Virus record (IMG/VR): IMGVR_UViG_3300017721_001026
Location: 32,001-96,000 of that record
Source: a virus
Taxonomy: Duplodnaviria; Caudoviricetes
Length of the DNA stretch: 64,000 nt
Reading direction: 5' to 3' (one strand)
The translations under genes and the position numbers were made by a program. Shown here piece by piece: positions 44,243 to 55,082 of the stretch; the stretch's first letter is position 1; each line of letters starts with the position of its first letter. A model generated the notes under the pieces. It was not told where the DNA came from. It searched no databases and was given only the letters and a program-made list of their open reading frames with translations.

Positions 44243-44323
44243 CTGGTTTCTTCAGAACAAATATAATATAAGGTATTTCTGGGGCAAAGTCAAGACCTAG
44301 TGGACACCTTGCCAACTGTCCTA
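44243..44323 (-). promoter_or_regulatory. Early promoter cassette, copy 8
   Basis: Dyad gtggacacct-tgcc-aactgtcc at 44300-44321; TTGACT..TATTAT. Confidence 0.75.
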
Positions 44324-44917
44324 CTTTTTGTCTGACGTGCAACAAACAAATTTTGTGACAGCATATCTTTCATTCTCGATAACATCTGTAACACTGTGCT
44401 CAACCCATCCAGGAAATATAATTGTTCTATTATTTTTTGTTTCTATTTCTAGATCTTGCTTGGGAAAGTATAAATTTCCACCAGAATCCTCTTTATAGCA
44501 TAATGTGGTACTAATTAAAGCATGAACCCAATAGTCTGTATGTGGTTCATATCCATCACCAGGATAATATCTCCTAACTTTGGTATAATCTGTATCAGAT
44601 TTTTCATATGTCACCCAATATTGATTATTTTGTATCAAATCATCAAAAAATTTATCATCATTAAAGAAAATATCTCCAGTAATGTTTAGAATGTCGGAGA
44701 CAGATCTTTGACTATACAGTGCATCCAATGACATACCTTTTGCTGTTGTCATGTAGTTTCCATTTTCATCCTTTGCAGCATAATACTTTTCTGGATCATT
44801 CAATTTATCGAGAAGAAATTCAAGTTCTCTCCAAATCAGTTTTAGTTGTTCTGCATCGAAGGTATCTTCTATGATAATGTATGGAAATGGTTCGTTAAAA
44901 ATCTGGTAATTCATCAT
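44321..44917 (-). CDS. 2OG-Fe(II) oxygenase (prolyl-hydroxylase-like)
   Basis: RYYPGDGYEPHTD..GGNLYF..IIFPG..EHSV..RY. Confidence 0.85.
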   Translation of the reverse strand: MMNYQIFNEPFPYIIIEDTFDAEQLKLIWRELEFLLDKLNDPEKYYAAKDENGNYMTTAKGMSLDALYSQRSVSDILNITGDIFFNDDKFFDDLIQNNQYWVTYEKSDTDYTKVRRYYPGDGYEPHTDYWVHALISTTLCYKEDSGGNLYFPKQDLEIETKNNRTIIFPGWVEHSVTDVIENERYAVTKFVCCTSDKK

Positions 44918-45110
44918 TCTGCTCCTCCAATAAGTCCTTCATAGTATCCATAAACTCATCTGCATGTCCTAAAGTATCTAAGGCATGGATCATTTCACCC
45001 AATGTCTTAACAATAAAAGGTTTCTCATTTCTTGCAGCAAATGCTAATGCTTCACGAAGATGTGTCTGAGCAGAGTCTAATTCGTCTTTAACTTGATCTG
45101 ATAGTGCCAT
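44895..45110 (-). CDS. Hypothetical protein
   Basis: MALSDQV..L..AQ.HLREALAFAARNEKP. Confidence 0.7.
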   Translation of the reverse strand: MALSDQVKDELDSAQTHLREALAFAARNEKPFIVKTLGEMIHALDTLGHADEFMDTMKDLLEEQNDELPDF

Positions 45111-45763
45111 TAGTTTTTTCTTCCTGTGTAGATTTTCTTTTCATTATCCCATTCAAAATGGTCAACCATTTCAACATCATCGTCACTTAAGTATAAACCC
45201 CATCCAGTTGCAATATATTTACTGCAAGAATATACGGGATTTCCACGATGAGTATGAGTGTAGAATGCTGGCCAAATTAACATCGTACCTGCCTTTGGTT
45301 GTACTCTGAGACCTTGCCAAAGAAACTCAGTTTCACCTTCACCTTCAGGAATGTCATTCAAATATAACATCCATGCAACACATCTGTCAACGACTCCTAG
45401 ATCATTTACCTCACAATGCCAATCATGAAATCCACCTCTAGGTGAAGTCTTTTGTATTTTTACCTCATCAAAATAGACATCAATATAATCAGAAACCCAA
45501 TACTTTTTACGGTATTGTTCCCAACAATGATCAACAACTTTTAGGACAAGATCTGCACAAGGATTGCCTGATTCCAAGTACCATTGTTCATCATGACGAG
45601 CAAGATAACCTCTCTCACTTTCATCTGAACCATATCCTGCTTTTATTTTACAATCAGAATCGTCGGGATGTTTATAGTTAGATTCAAAGTATTCAATAAC
45701 ATTGTCACATGTAGATTTATCTAATGAATTTAGATAAACACCAATAAAATCACTATCCTTCAT
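45110..45763 (-). CDS. 2OG-Fe(II) oxygenase
   Basis: GGFHDWHCE..WMLYLNDI..GETEF..IWPA.YTHTHRGNP..KYIATGW. Confidence 0.88.
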   Translation of the reverse strand: MKDSDFIGVYLNSLDKSTCDNVIEYFESNYKHPDDSDCKIKAGYGSDESERGYLARHDEQWYLESGNPCADLVLKVVDHCWEQYRKKYWVSDYIDVYFDEVKIQKTSPRGGFHDWHCEVNDLGVVDRCVAWMLYLNDIPEGEGETEFLWQGLRVQPKAGTMLIWPAFYTHTHRGNPVYSCSKYIATGWGLYLSDDDVEMVDHFEWDNEKKIYTGRKN

Positions 45764-47121
45764 ACAATCCAGGTTATGATAGAATATCTAGTTCCTTCAG
45801 TTACAGGTAAAATCTCATGTGGGTACATAAAATTAGATGGGAAAACTAATACATCACCAGCATTGAGTTTATACACTAATTCACGGTTGAATAGTGCAAC
45901 TTCACCACCTTCATAACCATCATTCATTGACATAATGACAGTCAATGCTCTAGGTTGGTCTTTAAATGAATCAGTATGCTGAATATAAAAGTCACCTTCT
46001 TCATACTTTAGTAGTTCATATCCACTATCTTCTTGAATCTCCAATTCAAATTCAGGATAACTTTCCTGATATTCTTCAATGATACCTTTTACAACATTAA
46101 AGAGATAATTATCAATTTCTCTCCTACCCTCTTGATTATTTTCCTCAATAACTGCTTGATCTGAAATTGGAATAAACTCACATCTTCTTGCATCTGGATC
46201 ATGCCCAGCACCAGTTAATGTACTCTCCCAATAGTTAGTTGGAGCATATTCTTCCAAAAGTTTATCGCAAAAATCTGGATCAATAAACTCTTCTTTGTGC
46301 CAGACAAAATGCTCCAAACTAAAACGACTTAATTCCTTTGTTTTAGTTTGTATTTCTGGTGTATTCTTAGGTTTAAGGAACTTTTCATATTTACTATTTG
46401 CTATAACAACGTCATCAAAATTGATATATTGTTCTGTTTCATCATCCTGTTCAATAATATCTAATGAGGATGACTGTTGATCTCTATATTTTTTAGGGAG
46501 AATTGTTTTTGTGGATACATGGTCAAATTTGTTTTTCATTTCATCATACTCCTTTTGTAGTGCTTCATGATCTTCAATGTCTTCTGTGATTAGTCTATCA
46601 AAATATGTGCAACCATACATTCCTCTACTTCTCACATAGTGTAAGAAGATTTGTGCATAATAGTCACCTTCAAATCTACCTCTCCAGTGTGGAGAAACAC
46701 AACCTAAGTATAACACAGCATCACCAGGATTCAAAGTGATGCATTTTTTTACACTTTCTGGTGTCTCAATCCAGATTGCCCAAGGTTTATCACCACCAAG
46801 ATGTACTGTCATTGATATTTCACAAGCAGGACGATCTGTGTGCCTCTTAAGAACACTGTCGTTGCGATATATTCTGGAGTAAGTATATGTTGGTAGAACA
46901 GTTTCACCGATAAGTTCACTAACTGTGCTAGTTTTATTGGTGAGTAATTCTATAGCAGGATGAAAGTTAAAGCATGATGAAGAGTTTGGTGCCTGTTCAT
47001 CACCTTCAAACTTAAATTGTGCGTCTGTTACGATAAACTCTGTTTCTAATCTTTTAGCATAATCTAAATCAATAAAACCAGGAACAACAATGTAGTTGTT
47101 TTTCAATAATTCAAGTTTCAT
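45760..47121 (-). CDS. Tandem two-domain 2OG-Fe(II) oxygenase
   Basis: Domain 1 LKRHTDRPACEISMT..HWR; domain 2 YIQHTD..YEGGE..FPSNFMYPHEI.PV..GTRYSI. Confidence 0.88.
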   Translation of the reverse strand: MKLELLKNNYIVVPGFIDLDYAKRLETEFIVTDAQFKFEGDEQAPNSSSCFNFHPAIELLTNKTSTVSELIGETVLPTYTYSRIYRNDSVLKRHTDRPACEISMTVHLGGDKPWAIWIETPESVKKCITLNPGDAVLYLGCVSPHWRGRFEGDYYAQIFLHYVRSRGMYGCTYFDRLITEDIEDHEALQKEYDEMKNKFDHVSTKTILPKKYRDQQSSSLDIIEQDDETEQYINFDDVVIANSKYEKFLKPKNTPEIQTKTKELSRFSLEHFVWHKEEFIDPDFCDKLLEEYAPTNYWESTLTGAGHDPDARRCEFIPISDQAVIEENNQEGRREIDNYLFNVVKGIIEEYQESYPEFELEIQEDSGYELLKYEEGDFYIQHTDSFKDQPRALTVIMSMNDGYEGGEVALFNRELVYKLNAGDVLVFPSNFMYPHEILPVTEGTRYSIITWIV

Positions 47122-47127
47122 ATGTCA

Positions 47128-48474
47128 TTACTTATCGTTTTTATCTAGAACTTCTTTTAATGCAGCAAACCATTTAACTGCCTTATCTAGAGGCATTCCA
47201 TTACCATCGTCTCTCTCATCATCTGTAAGAGTAGTGTATAGTTTTTCTGGATCAATTTCATCCATGAGTGACAAAATGTCATCAACACTATATTCTTGAC
47301 CACTCTCAATTTCTTGTCTCTCTATACTTTCTTTAGCAAGTTTAGATAGTTGACTTGGATCAGTGTTTTCTGCCTTATGTGATTCAAGAAGTTTTGCTCT
47401 TTGCACTTCTCTATACTCTTTCTCTGCCCTATCAAATTCTCTCTCTAATGCATCATCAAGTTCATCATATGTCTGTTCAATATCCATTTTCTTAAGAACT
47501 TCTTCATGAGATCTCATGATAATATCCATCTCATGATCAACTTCCTGTTGGAATTTTTTCTGTTCCAACTCATGATCAAGTTTCATTTTTTCTCTCTCAC
47601 GCACAACTTCTTCCATTGTAAATTGTGCATCACCCCATGCAGTTTCAAGTCCTTGCTTTTGAAGTTCAAGTTCCATTCTAGAAATTTCAATTTGTTCTAG
47701 TTCAAGTTCACGAACTTTATCATCATTTGCTCTCTTAAGTTCTTTTTCTTGCTCATCTTCAAGAATGTTCTTTTCGAGAAGTTCTGTTTCTCTTTCCATC
47801 TTATCACGTTCCATCTGAAGCAGTTCTTGATACTGCTTTCTTTCCTCAATAAATTCTTCCTTTTCTTTTTCAAAACTATGATAAAGTTCATCATACTTTT
47901 TAGAAAGTTCTAAAGACTTTTTCTGAAAGAATTCATCTGCTTTTTGTTGTTCAAGTGCTGCAACTTCTCTTTCTCTTGCTGCTTTTTCTCTCTCAAGTTC
48001 CATCAGAGTGGTTTGCCTATCATAGACACTTTTCTGTTCTTCTTTAGATTTTAGATCGTAAAGTTTTTCTTTCTCACTACGAAGTTCTTCATTTTGCTTT
48101 TGAAGATCATTAATGATGACAAGTTGTGCTTCTTTCTCAAGTTTATCAATGTTCAATTCTTCAATCTGCTTAGAAAGATTTTCCTCTTCTTCTAATGCCG
48201 CAGCAAGTTCTCTCTGCTCATAGATTGACAAGAATGTATTAAAATAGTCTAGATATGGTTGAACAATAGTATCAAATTCATCTTCACTAAAAATTTTATT
48301 TGGTACAGGATCTTCACCAATGACATCTTCATATTCTAATTCACCTCTGCCATCTCTCCACTGAATTGCATGGACAGTTTCATCATCAAAGTCCCAAGGT
48401 GCATTATCCTCAAGATCAACAGTCTTACCATCTACAATAATTTTTTTATCTTCTGGGATGATGGAAATTTTCAT
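47128..48474 (-). CDS. Acidic long coiled-coil protein with a tail-fibre-assembly-like N-terminal domain
   Basis: N-terminus IIPEDK.IIVDG..VHAIQW.DG.GELEY; ~300 Pro-free Glu-rich helical residues (aa 74-372). Confidence 0.6.
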   Translation of the reverse strand: MKISIIPEDKKIIVDGKTVDLEDNAPWDFDDETVHAIQWRDGRGELEYEDVIGEDPVPNKIFSEDEFDTIVQPYLDYFNTFLSIYEQRELAAALEEEENLSKQIEELNIDKLEKEAQLVIINDLQKQNEELRSEKEKLYDLKSKEEQKSVYDRQTTLMELEREKAAREREVAALEQQKADEFFQKKSLELSKKYDELYHSFEKEKEEFIEERKQYQELLQMERDKMERETELLEKNILEDEQEKELKRANDDKVRELELEQIEISRMELELQKQGLETAWGDAQFTMEEVVREREKMKLDHELEQKKFQQEVDHEMDIIMRSHEEVLKKMDIEQTYDELDDALEREFDRAEKEYREVQRAKLLESHKAENTDPSQLSKLAKESIERQEIESGQEYSVDDILSLMDEIDPEKLYTTLTDDERDDGNGMPLDKAVKWFAALKEVLDKNDK

Positions 48475-48857
48475 TGTTGTTCCTCGTCAGATTCGGGTAG
48501 TAAATTTTCTTCTTCATTATCTATACCTTCGATTTGTTCAATGTATTCAGAAACATTGACACCCTGTGCTTCACACATATCAAGATACATATTGCCAACG
48601 GCATCTAACATGTTCTGATTAGTTTCATGTGCCTTTGTCATTTCATTACGGAATGATTCAACAGCAGAACTTGTAGATCTTTGTTGTTGACTATTTTCAA
48701 TCATCAACATTGGCATCCATTGAACTGCACAAGACCAATGATCTACTGGATTTCCAGTGTTAGGATCTTGCCCAGTGATATGTGTATACCATGCACACTT
48801 ATGTTCGACACAATCTTTTTTAATAAGCGGACACCACTTGCCAGTTGATTTAGTCAT
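48471..48857 (-). CDS. 4-Cys putative metal-binding protein associated with fibre genes
   Basis: CPLIKKDCVEHKCAW..WSCA..P.L.IENSQQQRST..AVESFRNE. Confidence 0.65.
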   Translation of the reverse strand: MTKSTGKWCPLIKKDCVEHKCAWYTHITGQDPNTGNPVDHWSCAVQWMPMLMIENSQQQRSTSSAVESFRNEMTKAHETNQNMLDAVGNMYLDMCEAQGVNVSEYIEQIEGIDNEEENLLPESDEEQQ

Positions 48858-48870
48858 AAGATAAAATTCA

Positions 48871-48884
48871 GTGTATTATTTATT
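48871..48884 (-). promoter_or_regulatory. Late promoter (AATAAATA) for the Cys protein / coiled-coil / oxygenase genes
   Basis: Minus strand ATAAATAATACAC; the same 13-mer occurs at 50731-50743. Confidence 0.6.
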
Positions 48885-48893
48885 ATAGCACGA

Positions 48894-50156
48894 TCAATCC
48901 AAACTGCAAAGAATCACATCAATATATTGAACTCTCAATGGTGATAATCCTGCTGTAAATGATATTGGAGATCCAGTAAATGGATGAACGTGTGCTTGAC
49001 CACCACCAGTTGATGATGTTGCAGGTGCTTGAGTATTATTTGCCCTGATAGTACCACCAGGACTCAAAGTTCTCAATGGGAATCTTATACTCGTAACTTG
49101 AGGATATCTTTGAGGTGTACGATATGCTCTTGGTTGTCTATAGGATGCAGGATTTCTTTGAGGAACTGTTATTCTAAACGGAATATCCACTCGGAAACCA
49201 TTTCTCTGCCTGAATGAATATCTCACTCTAAATGTTCTCGGTTGCCTCTGTCTAAAATCTCTTCTCTGCCTACCATTTCTGGGTTGTCTAAAGTTACGAG
49301 GTTGACGGAAAGATCTTCTCTGTCTTCCAGATACAGGTCTTCGAGTTTGCCTTCTTTGCCTATAACTTGTATTTCTAGGTTGTCTTCTTACTGCTCTTCT
49401 TGGGAATCTATCGTTTCTTCTACGTCTCCCTCCTCTTCTTCTTGGTTCTCTATCATTCCTTCTTACACCAACACGGAAAGAGTTTGGAATTGGTCTTCTA
49501 CTTCTTCCACCACCCTGACGGAAACTAAATGGTGCTCTAGATCTTAATGGAACACGGAAAGGAACAGGAACTCTGAAAGTAAATGGATTTCTAGAACGTG
49601 TTTGATATCTAACTCTAAAGTTTCTTGGTTGTCTCTGTCTAAGTGGAACTCTCTGCCTTTGTGGTTGTCTATAGTTAAGAGGTTGTCTTACATTTGTTGG
49701 TTGTCTAAAATCGACACTAACTCTAGTGTCTAGAACAATTCTAGTTGATGCTCTAATATTATATCCACGTGGTTGTCTATTATTTTGTCTAAATGGTGAA
49801 GAACCTTCGGAAGATCTATATGAATTAGGATTACTTCCAGTGTTATGTGTATGTGCAGGAAGTTGATCTGTTGTTAATGTTGTTGGTCCAGTGCTTCCTG
49901 AAAGAGTTGAAGAAACAGTGCTGTCTGCACCAGAATCATTAAATAATGTAGTGAAACTTACAGATCCAGCAGATGATCCACCAGTACCATCAACAACTCT
50001 AAGTGATTTATCGTTTTCTGATATATCTTTAGTCCAACCAGTTGGTGCTGCCGCCTGGTAAAATACCATCGTAGAGGATTGAGGAATAATCCCGTAAAAA
50101 CTATTTAACTGACTGCCACCACCAAACTGAATTCCGTCTGCCTTTAAAATTGACAT
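48894..50156 (-). CDS. Short tail-fibre/collar-type protein with HxH motifs and a ~260-aa Arg-rich insertion
   Basis: Collar-like FYQAAAPTGW..LRVV.G.GG; TTLTTDQLPAHTH..GGGQAHVH..VQYIDVILC; paralog of 50167-50703. Confidence 0.75.
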   Translation of the reverse strand: MSILKADGIQFGGGSQLNSFYGIIPQSSTMVFYQAAAPTGWTKDISENDKSLRVVDGTGGSSAGSVSFTTLFNDSGADSTVSSTLSGSTGPTTLTTDQLPAHTHNTGSNPNSYRSSEGSSPFRQNNRQPRGYNIRASTRIVLDTRVSVDFRQPTNVRQPLNYRQPQRQRVPLRQRQPRNFRVRYQTRSRNPFTFRVPVPFRVPLRSRAPFSFRQGGGRSRRPIPNSFRVGVRRNDREPRRRGGRRRRNDRFPRRAVRRQPRNTSYRQRRQTRRPVSGRQRRSFRQPRNFRQPRNGRQRRDFRQRQPRTFRVRYSFRQRNGFRVDIPFRITVPQRNPASYRQPRAYRTPQRYPQVTSIRFPLRTLSPGGTIRANNTQAPATSSTGGGQAHVHPFTGSPISFTAGLSPLRVQYIDVILCSLD

Positions 50157-50166
50157 ATCTTATACC

Positions 50167-50703
50167 TCAACTAAAACGACAGAGAATGACATCAATATAT
50201 TGAACTCTCAGATCAATACTTCCAGAATATGGTGATGCTCCACCAGAAAATGGGTGAGTATGTGATGTTCCACCACCAGTTGGTGATGTTGCAGGTGCAT
50301 CAGAATTTACAGCACGTCCACCAATACCAGGAGATCCAGGACTTACGTTAACTTGAGAACCCGCATTGTGTGTATGTCCAGGAATTTGCTGAGTGGTCAA
50401 TGTTGTTCCTCCAACAGTACCAACAGCAGTTACAGTTCCACTAATTGGACGAGTTGATGTGGGAAATATGGTAGAGAATGGTTGTCCACCAGGACCAGCA
50501 GTTCCACCAGAACCAAATCCTCCACCAGAACCAGATACAACTCTAAGTGCTTTATTATTATGAGTGGTTACTTGTGCCCATCCACTGGGTGCTGATGGTT
50601 GATAAAACACTGCTACACTATTCTGAGGAATAATGCCATACTTAGAGTTTAAAACAGTATTATCAAGTCCAAATTGTATACCACTCGTTTGCAGAATAGA
50701 CAT
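50167..50703 (-). CDS. Short tail-fibre/collar-type protein with HxH motifs
   Basis: FYQPSAPSGW..ALRVVSG..TTLTTQQIPGHTH..GGGTSHTH..VQYIDVILC. Confidence 0.78.
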   Translation of the reverse strand: MSILQTSGIQFGLDNTVLNSKYGIIPQNSVAVFYQPSAPSGWAQVTTHNNKALRVVSGSGGGFGSGGTAGPGGQPFSTIFPTSTRPISGTVTAVGTVGGTTLTTQQIPGHTHNAGSQVNVSPGSPGIGGRAVNSDAPATSPTGGGTSHTHPFSGGASPYSGSIDLRVQYIDVILCRFS

Positions 50704-50730
50704 ATTATACCAATTACTAACAACGGATAC

Positions 50731-50744
50731 GTGTATTATTTATC
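50731..50744 (-). promoter_or_regulatory. Late promoter-like (GATAAATA) for the fibre paralog pair
   Basis: ATAAATAATACAC, shared with 48871-48883. Confidence 0.55.
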
Positions 50745-51402
50745 CAATATTAAATGCGATAGATATTCTCTCATTGTCACTAAAATGTGGTGTAACATAA
50801 TGCCCAACTGTAGAAGGCATTAAATACAACCTATTTACCTCAGGTTTAATTACCCATTCACAATGATTGGGGACATCGGCAAATGCAGCATTATGATTTG
50901 ATGGATCAGTTCTGAGAATAGTTAAGTTTCCCTCGTTTTCTTCAAGATTATCAGGAATCATTGGATAATAGATTCCAATAACTGAGCAACCAGGATGTGT
51001 ATGAAAGACGTTGTAACCCATTCCTTTGTTGATGTTAATCCACCAACCAATTTGCTCATCACTAACTCTTGACCCAGAACCACAATCTTCTAACATATCA
51101 TTTGTCAGGTCAATAACATTTCTAGCAAGATTTTGGATTGCAGGTGTAACTCCTCTCCGTATTTCACATAATTCAAAAACTTGACTTTGCCACCCATCTG
51201 CAAAGTTAGATTTCCTAACTCCATTCGGATACTTATCTTTTAGTTCAAAACACTCATCAACAATTTCTTGATTATCAAAATCTAATTTATAATCAAAAAA
51301 TGGTGTGGTGAACAATTCAATTCTATCCCTAGTTTCTACTTCTATAGGAACAAAATTATCATCATTTGGTTTTACTTCTGGTCTAAATCTATGCTCTGTC
51401 AT
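50740..51402 (-). CDS. 2OG-Fe(II) oxygenase (TIGR02466-like)
   Basis: WININ..YN.FHTHP..IYY..MPS..GHYV.P..RISIAFN. Confidence 0.85.
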   Translation of the reverse strand: MTEHRFRPEVKPNDDNFVPIEVETRDRIELFTTPFFDYKLDFDNQEIVDECFELKDKYPNGVRKSNFADGWQSQVFELCEIRRGVTPAIQNLARNVIDLTNDMLEDCGSGSRVSDEQIGWWININKGMGYNVFHTHPGCSVIGIYYPMIPDNLEENEGNLTILRTDPSNHNAAFADVPNHCEWVIKPEVNRLYLMPSTVGHYVTPHFSDNERISIAFNIG

Positions 51403-52133
51403 TATTCTCTTGCCCTAGGATTCCTGAAGAAAAATACTTGATTAATTCTAAACTCAGCATCACTATAGTGATCCGCAAAGTAATTTTTACCCGTAAGATC
51501 CATACTGTGATAATAGTAAGATCCCTCAAACATAACAAATCGATTGAACTTTGATCGAAATCTAACTACAATTTCCCACAAATCTTTAGGTGTCCATGGA
51601 ATAGCATGTTCATCTCTCACACCACCATTCTCATCTAAGGGTAAAATTTTTGGATTGTCAGTAACAGTTGGTTTATATAAATTTGTTCCAATCTCTTCTT
51701 TCTTTGAAAGATAGCAGATACCATTATATCCTCCATCGTGATGTGGCCACCAAAAATGAGTGTCATGTGGGTTTTCTTTAACTTTCGAGAATCTTGTGAA
51801 ATTAGTTACAATCTCATCATCTAGAGGTTGTTGATTACAAATATTGCTAAGTTTATTATATAATGAACAGATACCAGGATGTTTCATCATATGTCTGCGA
51901 TCTTCAAAGTATTTGGTATTAAGAGTTCCTCTACCTAAATCCCATTCTGGTCCAACTTTCCATAGTGGTGGTTCAATCGAAAGTAAGTAACTATAAACAT
52001 CATCAGGTCTTTTATAAAAGTTATCCATCCAATAAAGATTAGATACTCTATTACCATCAACAAACTCAATAATATTCATATTTGAGAAATCATTAGTCTC
52101 AAATAGTGTTGGATCTCTTCTCAAATCTCTCAT
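51402..52133 (-). CDS. 2OG-Fe(II) oxygenase-like (DUF6445-type)
   Basis: DNFYKRPD..PHHD..NGICYL..GTNLY..KFNRFVMF..YHS..RINQVFF. Confidence 0.75.
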   Translation of the reverse strand: MRDLRRDPTLFETNDFSNMNIIEFVDGNRVSNLYWMDNFYKRPDDVYSYLLSIEPPLWKVGPEWDLGRGTLNTKYFEDRRHMMKHPGICSLYNKLSNICNQQPLDDEIVTNFTRFSKVKENPHDTHFWWPHHDGGYNGICYLSKKEEIGTNLYKPTVTDNPKILPLDENGGVRDEHAIPWTPKDLWEIVVRFRSKFNRFVMFEGSYYYHSMDLTGKNYFADHYSDAEFRINQVFFFRNPRARE

Positions 52134-52693
52134 AAAAATATTTCTCCTATCTTTTCATCGTCTAAACAAAAACCAAACACCCATAGTATTCTAGGATTAT
52201 CACCTTTGGTTACAGTAACTTCATGGTGAATTTCAGATACTTGATATATTAAAAGATCTGTAGGATCTAAGTCAGTATATTCTACACCACCAATGATAGT
52301 ATGTCCACCCCTATCGGCATGTTGTGTAATGGCATTAAAATGAACTGTTTTCGTATCTGGATAATATGTAGGATCAATATGTTCTTCTATTCTTCCACCA
52401 GAATATCCAATACCATTTACAATCCCATGACTATATGATGGAGGACTTTTGTATTCATACAAGTCAAAGTAATTTATAATTCTTTGTCTGGCAATGTATG
52501 CGGCATCAGGATAATCTATACTTGGAGCAACTGATTCATTTGGAAACCGAGTTGTAAACCTTGTTCCAGAATTATCAGGATCCATGTTAGCATCCTCAAA
52601 GAACTCTTGACAGCAGTTATCAATAGTCCATTGATTTAGTTTTCTTACATCATCTTGAAATAGAAAGTTTCTGAGAACAAATGATTTAGACAT
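52130..52693 (-). CDS. 2OG-Fe(II) oxygenase
   Basis: GGRIEEHID..GGH..HHEV..G..PRILWVFGF; start set at MSKSF (track gives 52765). Confidence 0.8.
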   Translation of the reverse strand: MSKSFVLRNFLFQDDVRKLNQWTIDNCCQEFFEDANMDPDNSGTRFTTRFPNESVAPSIDYPDAAYIARQRIINYFDLYEYKSPPSYSHGIVNGIGYSGGRIEEHIDPTYYPDTKTVHFNAITQHADRGGHTIIGGVEYTDLDPTDLLIYQVSEIHHEVTVTKGDNPRILWVFGFCLDDEKIGEIFL

Positions 52694-53354
52694 CGGTTGT
52701 GCAGTATTCACTTGAATTTTGACTTTCTTCTTCAAATGAAAAGATTTCATACTCCGTATTAACATTAAATGATAAAATTATTCTATCTACATCACTTTGA
52801 TTTGGTGCAGTATAGTGGAGAACATATGATGGAAAAAATATCATTGATCCCTCTCTAATTCCAGGTGGAATAATATTACAGGTTTCAACATCTGCCAGAT
52901 TAGGATTCAAAAAGATAGTTGGTGTATGATGTTTTGGATCAAATTGAACAAAACAAACTGCACTGAATCCTTGAGACCCATGGTTATGAACTTGATGAAA
53001 CTTAGTGGTTGATGCTTTCTCAAACCATGAAGTACAAACTTCTACACCACATTCAAATGTATCAGCAAGTGCTTCTAACTCATCCCTAAAAAGATCCATG
53101 ATTAGTTCATCATAGGTCTCTCCATGGTCATGATTAAAATGATAATCAGTCTCTACATCTAAACTGGTTTCACTTCCTGTGGCAACTTTAAATTTAGATT
53201 TATCAGATTTTCTTCTCTCATACATTTCAAGAAGTTCTTTTTTCTTTTCCTCCCAATTTTCTATCTTAAGATGTAGAAGTGGAGTAGAGAACATAGGAAT
53301 TAAATATTCTTCATTTCCATTTGGTACATCACCATAAATTGCAAATTCAGTCAT
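52686..53354 (-). CDS. 2OG-Fe(II) oxygenase (TIGR02466-like)
   Basis: SWF..HQVHNHG..FSAV..EG.MIFFPS..LHY..N....RIILSFN. Confidence 0.85.
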   Translation of the reverse strand: MTEFAIYGDVPNGNEEYLIPMFSTPLLHLKIENWEEKKKELLEMYERRKSDKSKFKVATGSETSLDVETDYHFNHDHGETYDELIMDLFRDELEALADTFECGVEVCTSWFEKASTTKFHQVHNHGSQGFSAVCFVQFDPKHHTPTIFLNPNLADVETCNIIPPGIREGSMIFFPSYVLHYTAPNQSDVDRIILSFNVNTEYEIFSFEEESQNSSEYCTTDV

Positions 53355-53355
53355 A

Positions 53356-53583
53356 CTATTTCTTTTTTTGTTTCTTAAGGTGTCTTTTTTGCAATTTTAA
53401 CACTGCTGACAATGCTGTGTCAAAGTTACGATATAATGTTCCTGTTGGTTTTCCTTCAATGATAGTAGTGTATTTCTTTTTCTTACCTGCTATCGGAATC
53501 ACAACAAAATTACCATCATCAGAACAAAATTGCTTACGATATACAGATTGTAAGATTGATGAGTTAGTGTATGTATACTTCAT
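53356..53583 (-). CDS. Small basic hypothetical protein
   Basis: 75-aa Lys-rich ORF after the helicase. Confidence 0.6.
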   Translation of the reverse strand: MKYTYTNSSILQSVYRKQFCSDDGNFVVIPIAGKKKKYTTIIEGKPTGTLYRNFDTALSAVLKLQKRHLKKQKKK

Positions 53584-54917: not shown

Positions 54918-55082
54918 TCAGAGAAATTTAAGTGTTTCTTGTTGTTTAAAATATAATTTTATATATGACTTAAGAGCCGTTCTTAGTTCTTCAATATCCT
55001 CAATTTTATCGATATCTCTTGAAAGTCTTTCATACTCAAAAGATTTTGATGGAGTTCTTAAAGAAATCTCAGATGGGTTCAT
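54918..55082 (-). CDS. Small helical protein, 54 aa, NblA-like (not in ORF track)
   Basis: MNPSEISLRTPSKSFEYERLSRDIDKIEDIEELRTALKSYIKLYFKQQETLKFL*; AAGGA upstream. The ORF is well supported; the NblA similarity is by eye only. Confidence 0.6.
   Translation of the reverse strand: MNPSEISLRTPSKSFEYERLSRDIDKIEDIEELRTALKSYIKLYFKQQETLKFL

Follow-up and report, generated by a model that had tools for sequence, protein, structure and literature searches.

The tips of the T4 proteins gp37, gp12 and gp10 share a collar-type domain with HxH motifs (structure 2XGF for gp37), and genes for assembly helpers follow the genes that encode them. The gp37 chain reportedly passes from a collar through a needle to a head, a topology that Bartual and colleagues are said to have described in 2010. 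The same type of domain, again followed by probable helper genes, is encoded in a block of twelve genes at positions 44321-53354 of a 64,000-nucleotide stretch of DNA from an uncultured marine cyanophage, hereafter the window, which comprises bases 32001-96000 of the IMG/VR record IMGVR_UViG_3300017721_001026 (153.8 kb, approximately 67% complete). The block encodes two fibre-tip proteins, fibS and fibL, the second with an arginine-rich insert, together with a four-cysteine protein (Cys4), an acidic helical protein, a small protein and seven firm or probable 2-oxoglutarate-Fe(II) (2OG) oxygenases (ox1 to ox4, ox56, ox7 and ox8). We consider it probable that the region serves an S-SCSM1-like cyanomyovirus of the T4 type as a module for receptor-binding fibre tips, in which the insert forms a projection, the helper genes serve the fibre and these genes are transcribed in late units.

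Compared with the T4 proteins, fibS and fibL consist of a tip only (178 or 420 amino acids) and have no long shaft. The insert of fibL sits between two HxH motifs, the position from which the needle and head of gp37 emerge. In contrast to gp37, the putative projection of fibL has no HxH metal ladder; it is 30% Arg and shows a Lys-free hexad repeat of RQP and aromatic residues with an Arg/Gly apex. Among isolates, Synechococcus phage S-SCSM1, a T4-like cyanomyovirus of 229 kb, is nearest. Its ORF240-251 (MK867354) correspond to the twelve genes in unchanged order; the two blocks are collinear gene for gene and 79.7% identical at the nucleotide level. In the description of S-SCSM1, these genes are annotated as tail fibre, short tail fibre, hypothetical proteins and oxygenases; the word "arginine" occurs 0 times, and neither an Arg-rich insert nor a link between the genes is mentioned (PMC9602691).

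The other components also have described relatives. The prolyl-4-hydroxylases (P4Hs) of Bacillus anthracis (3itq, 5hv0) and PBCV-1 (5c5t) and the Pseudomonas PHD (4iw3) have the HxD...H...R motif in common with ox7, ox8 and the C-domain of ox56. Unlike collagen-type P4Hs, the phage enzymes are encoded in a fibre/chaperone operon, and ox56 joins two oxygenase domains through a linker of varying length. The acidic protein shares an N-domain (IIPxD...DG...HAIQW...G.IEY) and a position after the fibre and Cys4 genes with the Phage_tail_APC chaperones PSSM2_030 and CRP-361 gp41, but it has approximately 300 Pro-free, acidic helical residues and another C-terminus instead of the APC motif. In mussel foot adhesive proteins, cationic repeats carry Arg, Pro and Tyr in hydroxylated form. 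fibL has no homology to them; by analogy, its short cationic repeats with aromatic residues and Pro, encoded beside hydroxylases, would suit an adhesive dependent on hydroxylated residues and cation-pi contacts. The block is a fibre-tip/chaperone module of a known general kind. Its undescribed features are the Arg-rich two-armed insert, the Cys4 partner family and a resident prolyl-hydroxylase-type oxygenase, extended to a battery in one clade.

The fibre pair and the arginine-rich insert

All twelve open reading frames (ORFs) of the block lie on the minus strand, in the order that an earlier sequence-only reading had given, and their junctions overlap or measure at most 36 nucleotides (nt). 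fibS (50167-50703; 178 amino acids) is a collar/HxH fibre-tip protein, and fibL (48894-50156; 420 amino acids) is its paralogue, with flanks that are 48% and 58% identical. Residues 119-364 of fibL (DNA approximately 49065-49802) form an Arg/Pro/Gln/aromatic repeat insert that replaces a short loop between the two HxH motifs of fibS; it is 246 amino acids long and not 260 as first thought, while both the insert itself and the paralogy were correctly recognized. When a profile of the fibS family was compared with solved structures, it matched the trimeric tail fibre 9qgo (1.9e-9) and 9nxk (0.006). The histidines of both HxH pairs are invariant, namely H110, H112, H148 and H150 in fibS (18 sequences) and H102, H104, H389 and H391 in fibL (12 sequences), as is the YIDVIxC end of the family. 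Identification of the short fibre as an HxH protein was confirmed by these invariant pairs and by the match to 9qgo. The S-SCSM1 orthologues gave HHpred values of approximately 99% against T4 gp37, gp12 and gp10 (PMC9602691), and in the GenBank record of this phage the fibS orthologue ORF244 is marked as a virion protein found by mass spectrometry. No Pfam family matched fibS or fibL at E <= 0.01, PF07484 (Phage tail collar) included, and none matched two non-insert fibre paralogues from a related locus either.

The insert contains 74 Arg (30%), 28 Pro (11%), 10% Gln and 7% Phe, and is devoid of Lys, His, Cys, Met and Trp. The repeated RQP units noticed earlier are real: RQP occurs 10 times, compared to 0.87 expected. 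Arg and Pro show autocorrelation at lags 6, 12 and 18, which corresponds to a period-6 repeat, and the hydrophobic residues alternate with period 2, a pattern typical of beta strands. Measured against seven relatives (synonymous divergence dS 0.4-1.2), omega of the insert was 0.30-0.41, which equals that of the folded flanks and indicates purifying selection, and insertions or deletions (indels) were practically absent; fibL and its S-SCSM1 orthologue are 77% identical overall, and their inserts align without an indel. In 64 homologues, the 14-mer with the most Arg and Gly falls at the midpoint of the insert (relative position 0.505 +/- 0.066). In a long-insert subclade, both arms are extended (approximately 175/166 versus 137/124 residues). 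Taken together, these features support the view of the insert as a repeat structure with two arms that is held under constraint.

Insert-bearing relatives of fibL fall into approximately 80 metagenomic clusters (411-527 amino acids), and S-SCSM1 is the only one among 50,697 phage records with an insert-bearing fibre. A protein-language search with the insert gave a weak lead to clusters labelled "phage tail fibre repeat" (score 0.80). A complex prediction with three fibS chains and Cys4 scored 0.00 and was counted neither way. No description of Arg-rich fibre inserts was found in the literature. Several metagenomic proteins of approximately 580 amino acids (P0073, P0082, P0101) contain three tandem collar/HxH domains per chain and may be single-chain pseudo-trimers of the fibre tip.

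The probable helper genes behind the fibres

The Cys4 protein (cys, 48471-48857; 128 amino acids) is a partner of collar/HxH fibre tips. Its four cysteines (C9, C16, C21 and C43), already pointed out in the sequence-only reading, are invariant in 17 homologues, and it has a highly conserved core of 75 residues. No Pfam or PHROG family matched, and a PDB profile search was empty; an AlphaFold2 (AF2) model consisted of a hairpin and helices with a predicted local distance difference test score (pLDDT) of 51. Relatives form at least 7,686 clusters at 90% identity, all labelled hypothetical. In bacterial and prophage loci (L085-L122) from Proteobacteria, Verrucomicrobia, Patescibacteria and Melainabacteria, the gene comes directly after a gene with a collar/HxH end in 34 of 36 evaluable cases. 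It directly follows a collar/HxH gene in P-SSM2 and in a Roseobacter podovirus as well, and lies one gene downstream in a Ralstonia phage. Judged by this gene order, the Cys4 protein is a general partner of collar/HxH fibre tips. The idea that it is a part specific to the insert is not supported, as it accompanies the same tip type in insert-less phages, mostly without oxygenases.

The acidic protein (47128-48474; 448 amino acids; 71% identical to its S-SCSM1 orthologue) has the N-domain of tail-fibre assembly chaperones. Its N-terminal 40-140 residues align with PSSM2_030 (Pfam Phage_tail_APC) and with CRP-361 gp41, which is annotated as "tail assembly chaperone"; BLASTP gave E values of 3e-5 and 2e-9, respectively, and 2e-8 for a non-insert homologue. 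The genes that come after Cys4 in insert-less cyanophages and in numerous prophages encode the same N-domain, and TACN profile matches lie beside Cys4 in 17 bacterial loci. The full protein of 448 residues had no Pfam hit, and the C-terminal APC domain PF16778 was not matched; the Phage_tail_APC domain is present in the relatives PSSM2_030 and L121.

Residues 74-372 of the acidic protein are Pro-free and rich in Glu, Lys and Leu. The protein is indeed acidic (net charge -60), but the coiled coil once assigned to it was not confirmed, since the heptad periodicity is weak (lag-7 autocorrelation 0.08) and the composition also fits a charged single alpha-helix. The opposite charge of fibL (+63) was considered as evidence of a partnership and rejected, as insert-less phages have homologues that are just as acidic (266 amino acids, net -48; 348 amino acids, net -80). 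The negative charge is therefore older than the Arg insert. In S-SCSM1, the orthologue carries no virion flag despite 26 good tryptic peptides expected, which fits a chaperone. By its N-domain and its relatives, the acidic protein is best described as a relative of tail-fibre assembly chaperones, and not as the charge-matched partner of an Arg needle that it had been taken for.

The oxygenases

The sequence-only reading counted seven oxygenase genes with eight domains. Five of these domains are firm, with Pfam matches above cut-off; the other three, in ox2, ox3 and the N-terminal half of ox56, are probable. Prolyl-hydroxylase-type enzymes are encoded at the downstream end of the block. ox56 (45760-47121; 453 amino acids) is a two-domain oxygenase whose gene starts 6 nt after the chaperone gene, and it is followed by ox7 (45110-45763; 217 amino acids) and, beyond a small ORF, by ox8 (44321-44917; 198 amino acids). 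From cys through ox8, neighbouring genes overlap or are at most 6 nt apart. The C-domain of ox56, ox7 and ox8 matched PF13640 with E values of 8e-16, 1.2e-10 and 2.5e-9 (59, 43 and 38 bits; cut-off 27). In the ox56 C-domain, H382, D384, H435 and R445 are conserved, and the nearest solved structure is the Pseudomonas putida prolyl hydroxylase 4iw3 (3e-4). The ox7/ox8 profile matched the B. anthracis P4H over nearly its full length (5e-11) and the PBCV-1 P4H (2e-8), with collagen lysyl hydroxylase and PiuC among the lower matches. These three domains are P4H-like, and some fit to protein hydroxylation is suggested by their sequences. ox8 is confined to the S-SCSM1-like subclade.

The N-domain of ox56 had no Pfam match; across 39 homologues, its H94-x-D96...H145 is kept in 95% or more. 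The interdomain linker (residues 177-275) has 99 amino acids in the window, 99-155 in insert-bearing loci and 27-49 in insert-less ones.

The upstream array is opened by ox1 (52686-53354; 222 amino acids) and closed by ox4 (50740-51402; 220 amino acids), both 2OG oxygenases of the PF13759 type (3e-10, PHROG 81, and 2.8e-14, respectively). Their profile matched only the uncharacterised proteins 3bvc and 2rg4 among solved structures. ox2 (52130-52702, start set at 52702 after S-SCSM1 ORF241; 190 amino acids) had no Pfam or PHROG match in the window. It has an invariant H108-x-D110, H160 and R171, and five of nine homologues showed weak, sub-threshold matches to WelO5 (best E 0.003); among phage isolates, it occurs in S-SCSM1 alone. 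ox3 (51402-52133; 243 amino acids) is DUF6445-like, with matches below cut-off in six of nine homologues (E 9.6e-4 and 3.5e-4), and belongs to PHROG 1644. It shows the HxD...H...R set with invariant H131, D133 and H209, and its homologues occur in 37 phage records without an insert fibre. PDB profile searches with ox2 and ox3 found nothing, and hhalign of their profiles against those of ox1/4 and ox7/8 was uninformative (probability <3%). By their conserved residues, ox2, ox3 and the ox56 N-domain are probable oxygenases. The PHROG labels "ferrochelatase" (phrog_3531 and phrog_2954; ox56 N-domain) and "minor coat protein" (phrog_1644; ox3) are apparent misnomers, because both proteins keep oxygenase-type HxD...H motifs.

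The small ORF (44895-45110) encodes an acidic protein of 71 amino acids that is conserved after the oxygenase or oxygenases. A family search gave no match for it; homologues are present in nearly all loci compared, insert-less ones included.

Distribution of the module

A synteny survey covered 78 IMG/VR loci. The full block order was found in approximately 20 distinct metagenomic loci, down to approximately 33% fibL identity, and the block stays together where the helicase sits on the opposite side. It can thus be regarded as the conserved unit that was originally proposed. ox1-4 lie upstream in every insert-bearing locus and ox7 is present in nearly all of them; nearly all also have a chaperone of 421-493 amino acids and an ox56 linker of 99-155. 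Fibre and chaperone lengths go together: fibL proteins of 420-441 amino acids pair with acidic proteins of 421-448, and those of 494-517 with acidic proteins of 472-493.

A core without an insert, consisting of two fibres, Cys4, chaperone, a two-domain oxygenase of approximately 384 amino acids and the small ORF, is found on many cyanomyovirus contigs. The well-studied isolate P-SSM2 has the same module (L080:3315-6699, PSSM2_028-032): behind a collagen-repeat fibre with a collar/HxH end come Cys4, a chaperone with Phage_tail_APC, an oxygenase of the PiuC type (PF13640) and a small ORF. A contig of a Coraliomargarita metagenome-assembled genome (L121:1029-3966, PAAN01000007.1) encodes a fibre with Mtd_N and collar/HxH domains, a PF13640 oxygenase, Cys4 and a Phage_tail_APC chaperone; here, a P4H-like gene is embedded among fibre and chaperone genes whose arrangement differs from that of cyanomyoviruses. 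On a Melainabacteria contig, a PF13640 oxygenase is located just upstream of the fibre and Cys4 genes, and in one locus the oxygenase has moved upstream, ahead of three fibre paralogues. A PF13640 oxygenase stays with fibre, Cys4 and chaperone through rearrangements (L035, P-SSM2, L112, L121). Collagen repeats, which the P-SSM2 fibre has, were considered as a general P4H substrate and rejected, as the collagen-like fibres in the compared loci are Pro-poor.

Transcription signals

The 13-mer ATAAATAATACAC, which resembles a late promoter, occurs exactly twice in the window (0.32 expected when one mismatch is allowed), both times on the minus strand: at 50731-50743, 34 nt before the fibS start, and at 48871-48883, 20 nt before the cys start. 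The fibre pair and the Cys4/acidic genes hence do have this element in common, as previously noticed. The motif ATAAATA is found 10 times on the minus (coding) strand of the window and is absent from the plus strand. For seven of the 10 copies, an ORF of 60 amino acids or more with an ATG start begins within the next 60 nt, and copies are located 20-55 nt before fibS, cys, the gene of a 1,022-residue virion protein and a 564-residue fibre gene. Distant, insert-less loci have kept an ATAAATA at 32-41 nt ahead of their first fibre gene. The cys-side 13-mer is limited to the S-SCSM1-like clade; L018 has ATAAATA further upstream of cys.

No ATAAATA motif precedes ox1 or ox56. Approximately 70 nt upstream of ox1, there is a sigma70-like site, TTGACA-18-TAAAAT (53394-53423, minus strand; 11/12 match with TG). 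Both of its hexamers are conserved in 10 related loci, with a variable spacer, and coding constraint may contribute to this conservation. Terminator and sigma70 scans of the region were at chance level overall, and conservation singles out the site before ox1 alone. Because of this site, ox1-4 are read as an early or middle unit, and the ATAAATA-type signals suggest that fibS-fibL and cys-chaperone-ox56-ox7-small ORF-ox8 form late units; the split between early and late is a matter of motifs. The sigma70-like site lies within a Lys-rich ORF of 75 amino acids (53356-53583) between the helicase and ox1. A further ORF of 54 amino acids (54918-55082) sits where S-SCSM1 annotates nblA (phycobilisome degradation protein, ORF237).

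Discussion

In the explanation that we favour, the insert would leave the collar as a beta-rich arm, turn at the Arg/Gly-rich apex and return, so that a fibL trimer would present a polycationic projection touching the anionic surface polymers of the cyanobacterial host. The Cys4 and acidic proteins would be assembly factors of the fibre and not parts of the appendage, and in the chaperone relative the middle would have grown into a long acidic helical region. Fibres, helpers, ox56, ox7, the small ORF and ox8 would be expressed in late units starting at ATAAATA, and the prolyl-hydroxylase-like enzymes could hydroxylate fibre proteins or helpers during assembly. For the late P4H-like enzymes, we regard this activity as possible but doubtful, and a link between the ox1-4 array and the fibre as quite unlikely. 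In favour of an oxygenase-fibre link, a single clade shows greater length of the fibre, of the chaperone and of the ox56 linker. The more far-reaching idea that the phage tailors its own fibre, with late P4H-like oxygenases or possibly the whole battery hydroxylating Pro, Arg or Asn of a polycationic beta-needle while it is folded with the help of Cys4 and the chaperone, seems rather unlikely to us.

Several observations weigh against our explanation. The fibL orthologue ORF245 carries no virion flag in the S-SCSM1 record, which is a weak point as it offers only 6 usable tryptic peptides. Fibres beside P4H-like genes in three loci (L112, L121, L085) are not Pro-rich, and 35 of 38 collar/Cys4 modules in bacterial genomes have no oxygenase. 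On the ox56 tree, the insert-bearing loci form one clade (SH-aLRT 94; in the one locus that seems to deviate, a contig end truncates the fibre). Therefore, the association between insert and oxygenases reflects one event with co-retention and not repeated independent evolution; insert, ox1-4, ox7, the longer chaperone and the longer ox56 linker were gained once, in a single event. The predicted association of repeat-bearing fibres with oxygenase arrays holds in every insert-bearing locus, but with this one origin. A tailoring cluster with the logic of ribosomally synthesised and post-translationally modified peptides, as the sequence-only reading had it, finds no support here: substrate and enzymes did not come together repeatedly and independently, and only a single PF13640 oxygenase recurs with fibre modules of other arrangement. 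No paper linking phage oxygenases to fibre hydroxylation was found in the literature. It is improbable that all seven oxygenases tailor Arg, Pro and Asn of the RQP repeats, with the acidic protein as a charge- and length-matched sheath or partner of the needle. This would account for the retention of the block in every insert-bearing locus seen, at low fibL identity and through the helicase rearrangement, for the opposite charges, and for the longer acidic proteins that accompany longer inserts. It is at odds with the single origin, with the equally acidic, chaperone-related family members in insert-less phages, with the separate sigma70-like promoter of ox1-4, with the occurrence of ox3 relatives in phages without an insert fibre, and with an ox1/ox4 family that has no known substrate.

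The oxygenases may also be unrelated to the fibres and act on host proteins, nucleic acids, metabolites or the 2OG pool, their adjacency being due to plastic genome regions; we hold this to be a serious possibility, if somewhat short of probable. The enzyme of structure 4iw3, nearest solved relative of the ox56 C-domain, is reported to hydroxylate EF-Tu, a host-type target. The promoter of ox1-4 is of an early type, and further oxygenases are encoded elsewhere on the source contig. S-SCSM1 itself has 24 oxygenase genes scattered genome-wide (PMC9602691), so that clustering beside fibres could reflect a plastic region, and the published hypothesis has the 2OG oxygenases of cyanophages influence the 2-oxoglutarate and nitrogen status of the host (PMC3037559). 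However, a PF13640 oxygenase keeps its place in the late fibre/Cys4/chaperone unit in many lineages and gene orders, ox56 is separated from the chaperone gene by only 6 nt, and its linker was lengthened at the same node as fibre and chaperone. As to the insert, AF2 did not give a confident structure (fibL monomer, alignment of 12 rows, pLDDT 35), and because of this the two-armed beta projection that we infer is founded on sequence features. Together with the low-complexity composition dominated by Arg, Pro and Gln, the model would agree with an intrinsically disordered polycationic tether, or a binder of nucleic acid or membranes, instead of an ordered needle. We consider such a tether an unlikely description of the insert, given the lack of indels and an omega like that of the folded flanks at this divergence, the strict period-2 alternation of hydrophobic residues, the period-6 repeat, and the central apex with arms of matched length; moreover, AF2 monomer runs on intertwined trimers commonly fail with alignments of 12 rows.

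Cyanomyoviruses carry many 2OG oxygenase genes whose substrates have been unknown for fifteen years, and modulation of host 2-oxoglutarate is the only published idea about them. In the module described here, the late fibre-tip/chaperone operon of many lineages stably includes an oxygenase of the prolyl-hydroxylase type, and one clade adds six more oxygenase domains together with a highly unusual Arg-rich projection. The Cys4 gene, which almost always stands directly behind this type of fibre tip in phages of numerous bacterial phyla, should help in the annotation of receptor-binding modules. For the oxygenases, the module offers a substrate hypothesis that is directly testable in a cultured phage, with ORF244-251 of S-SCSM1. 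If it is true, the fibre would be the first phage adhesin that depends on post-translational hydroxylation, and it would provide the first concrete substrate for the 2OG oxygenases of cyanophages.

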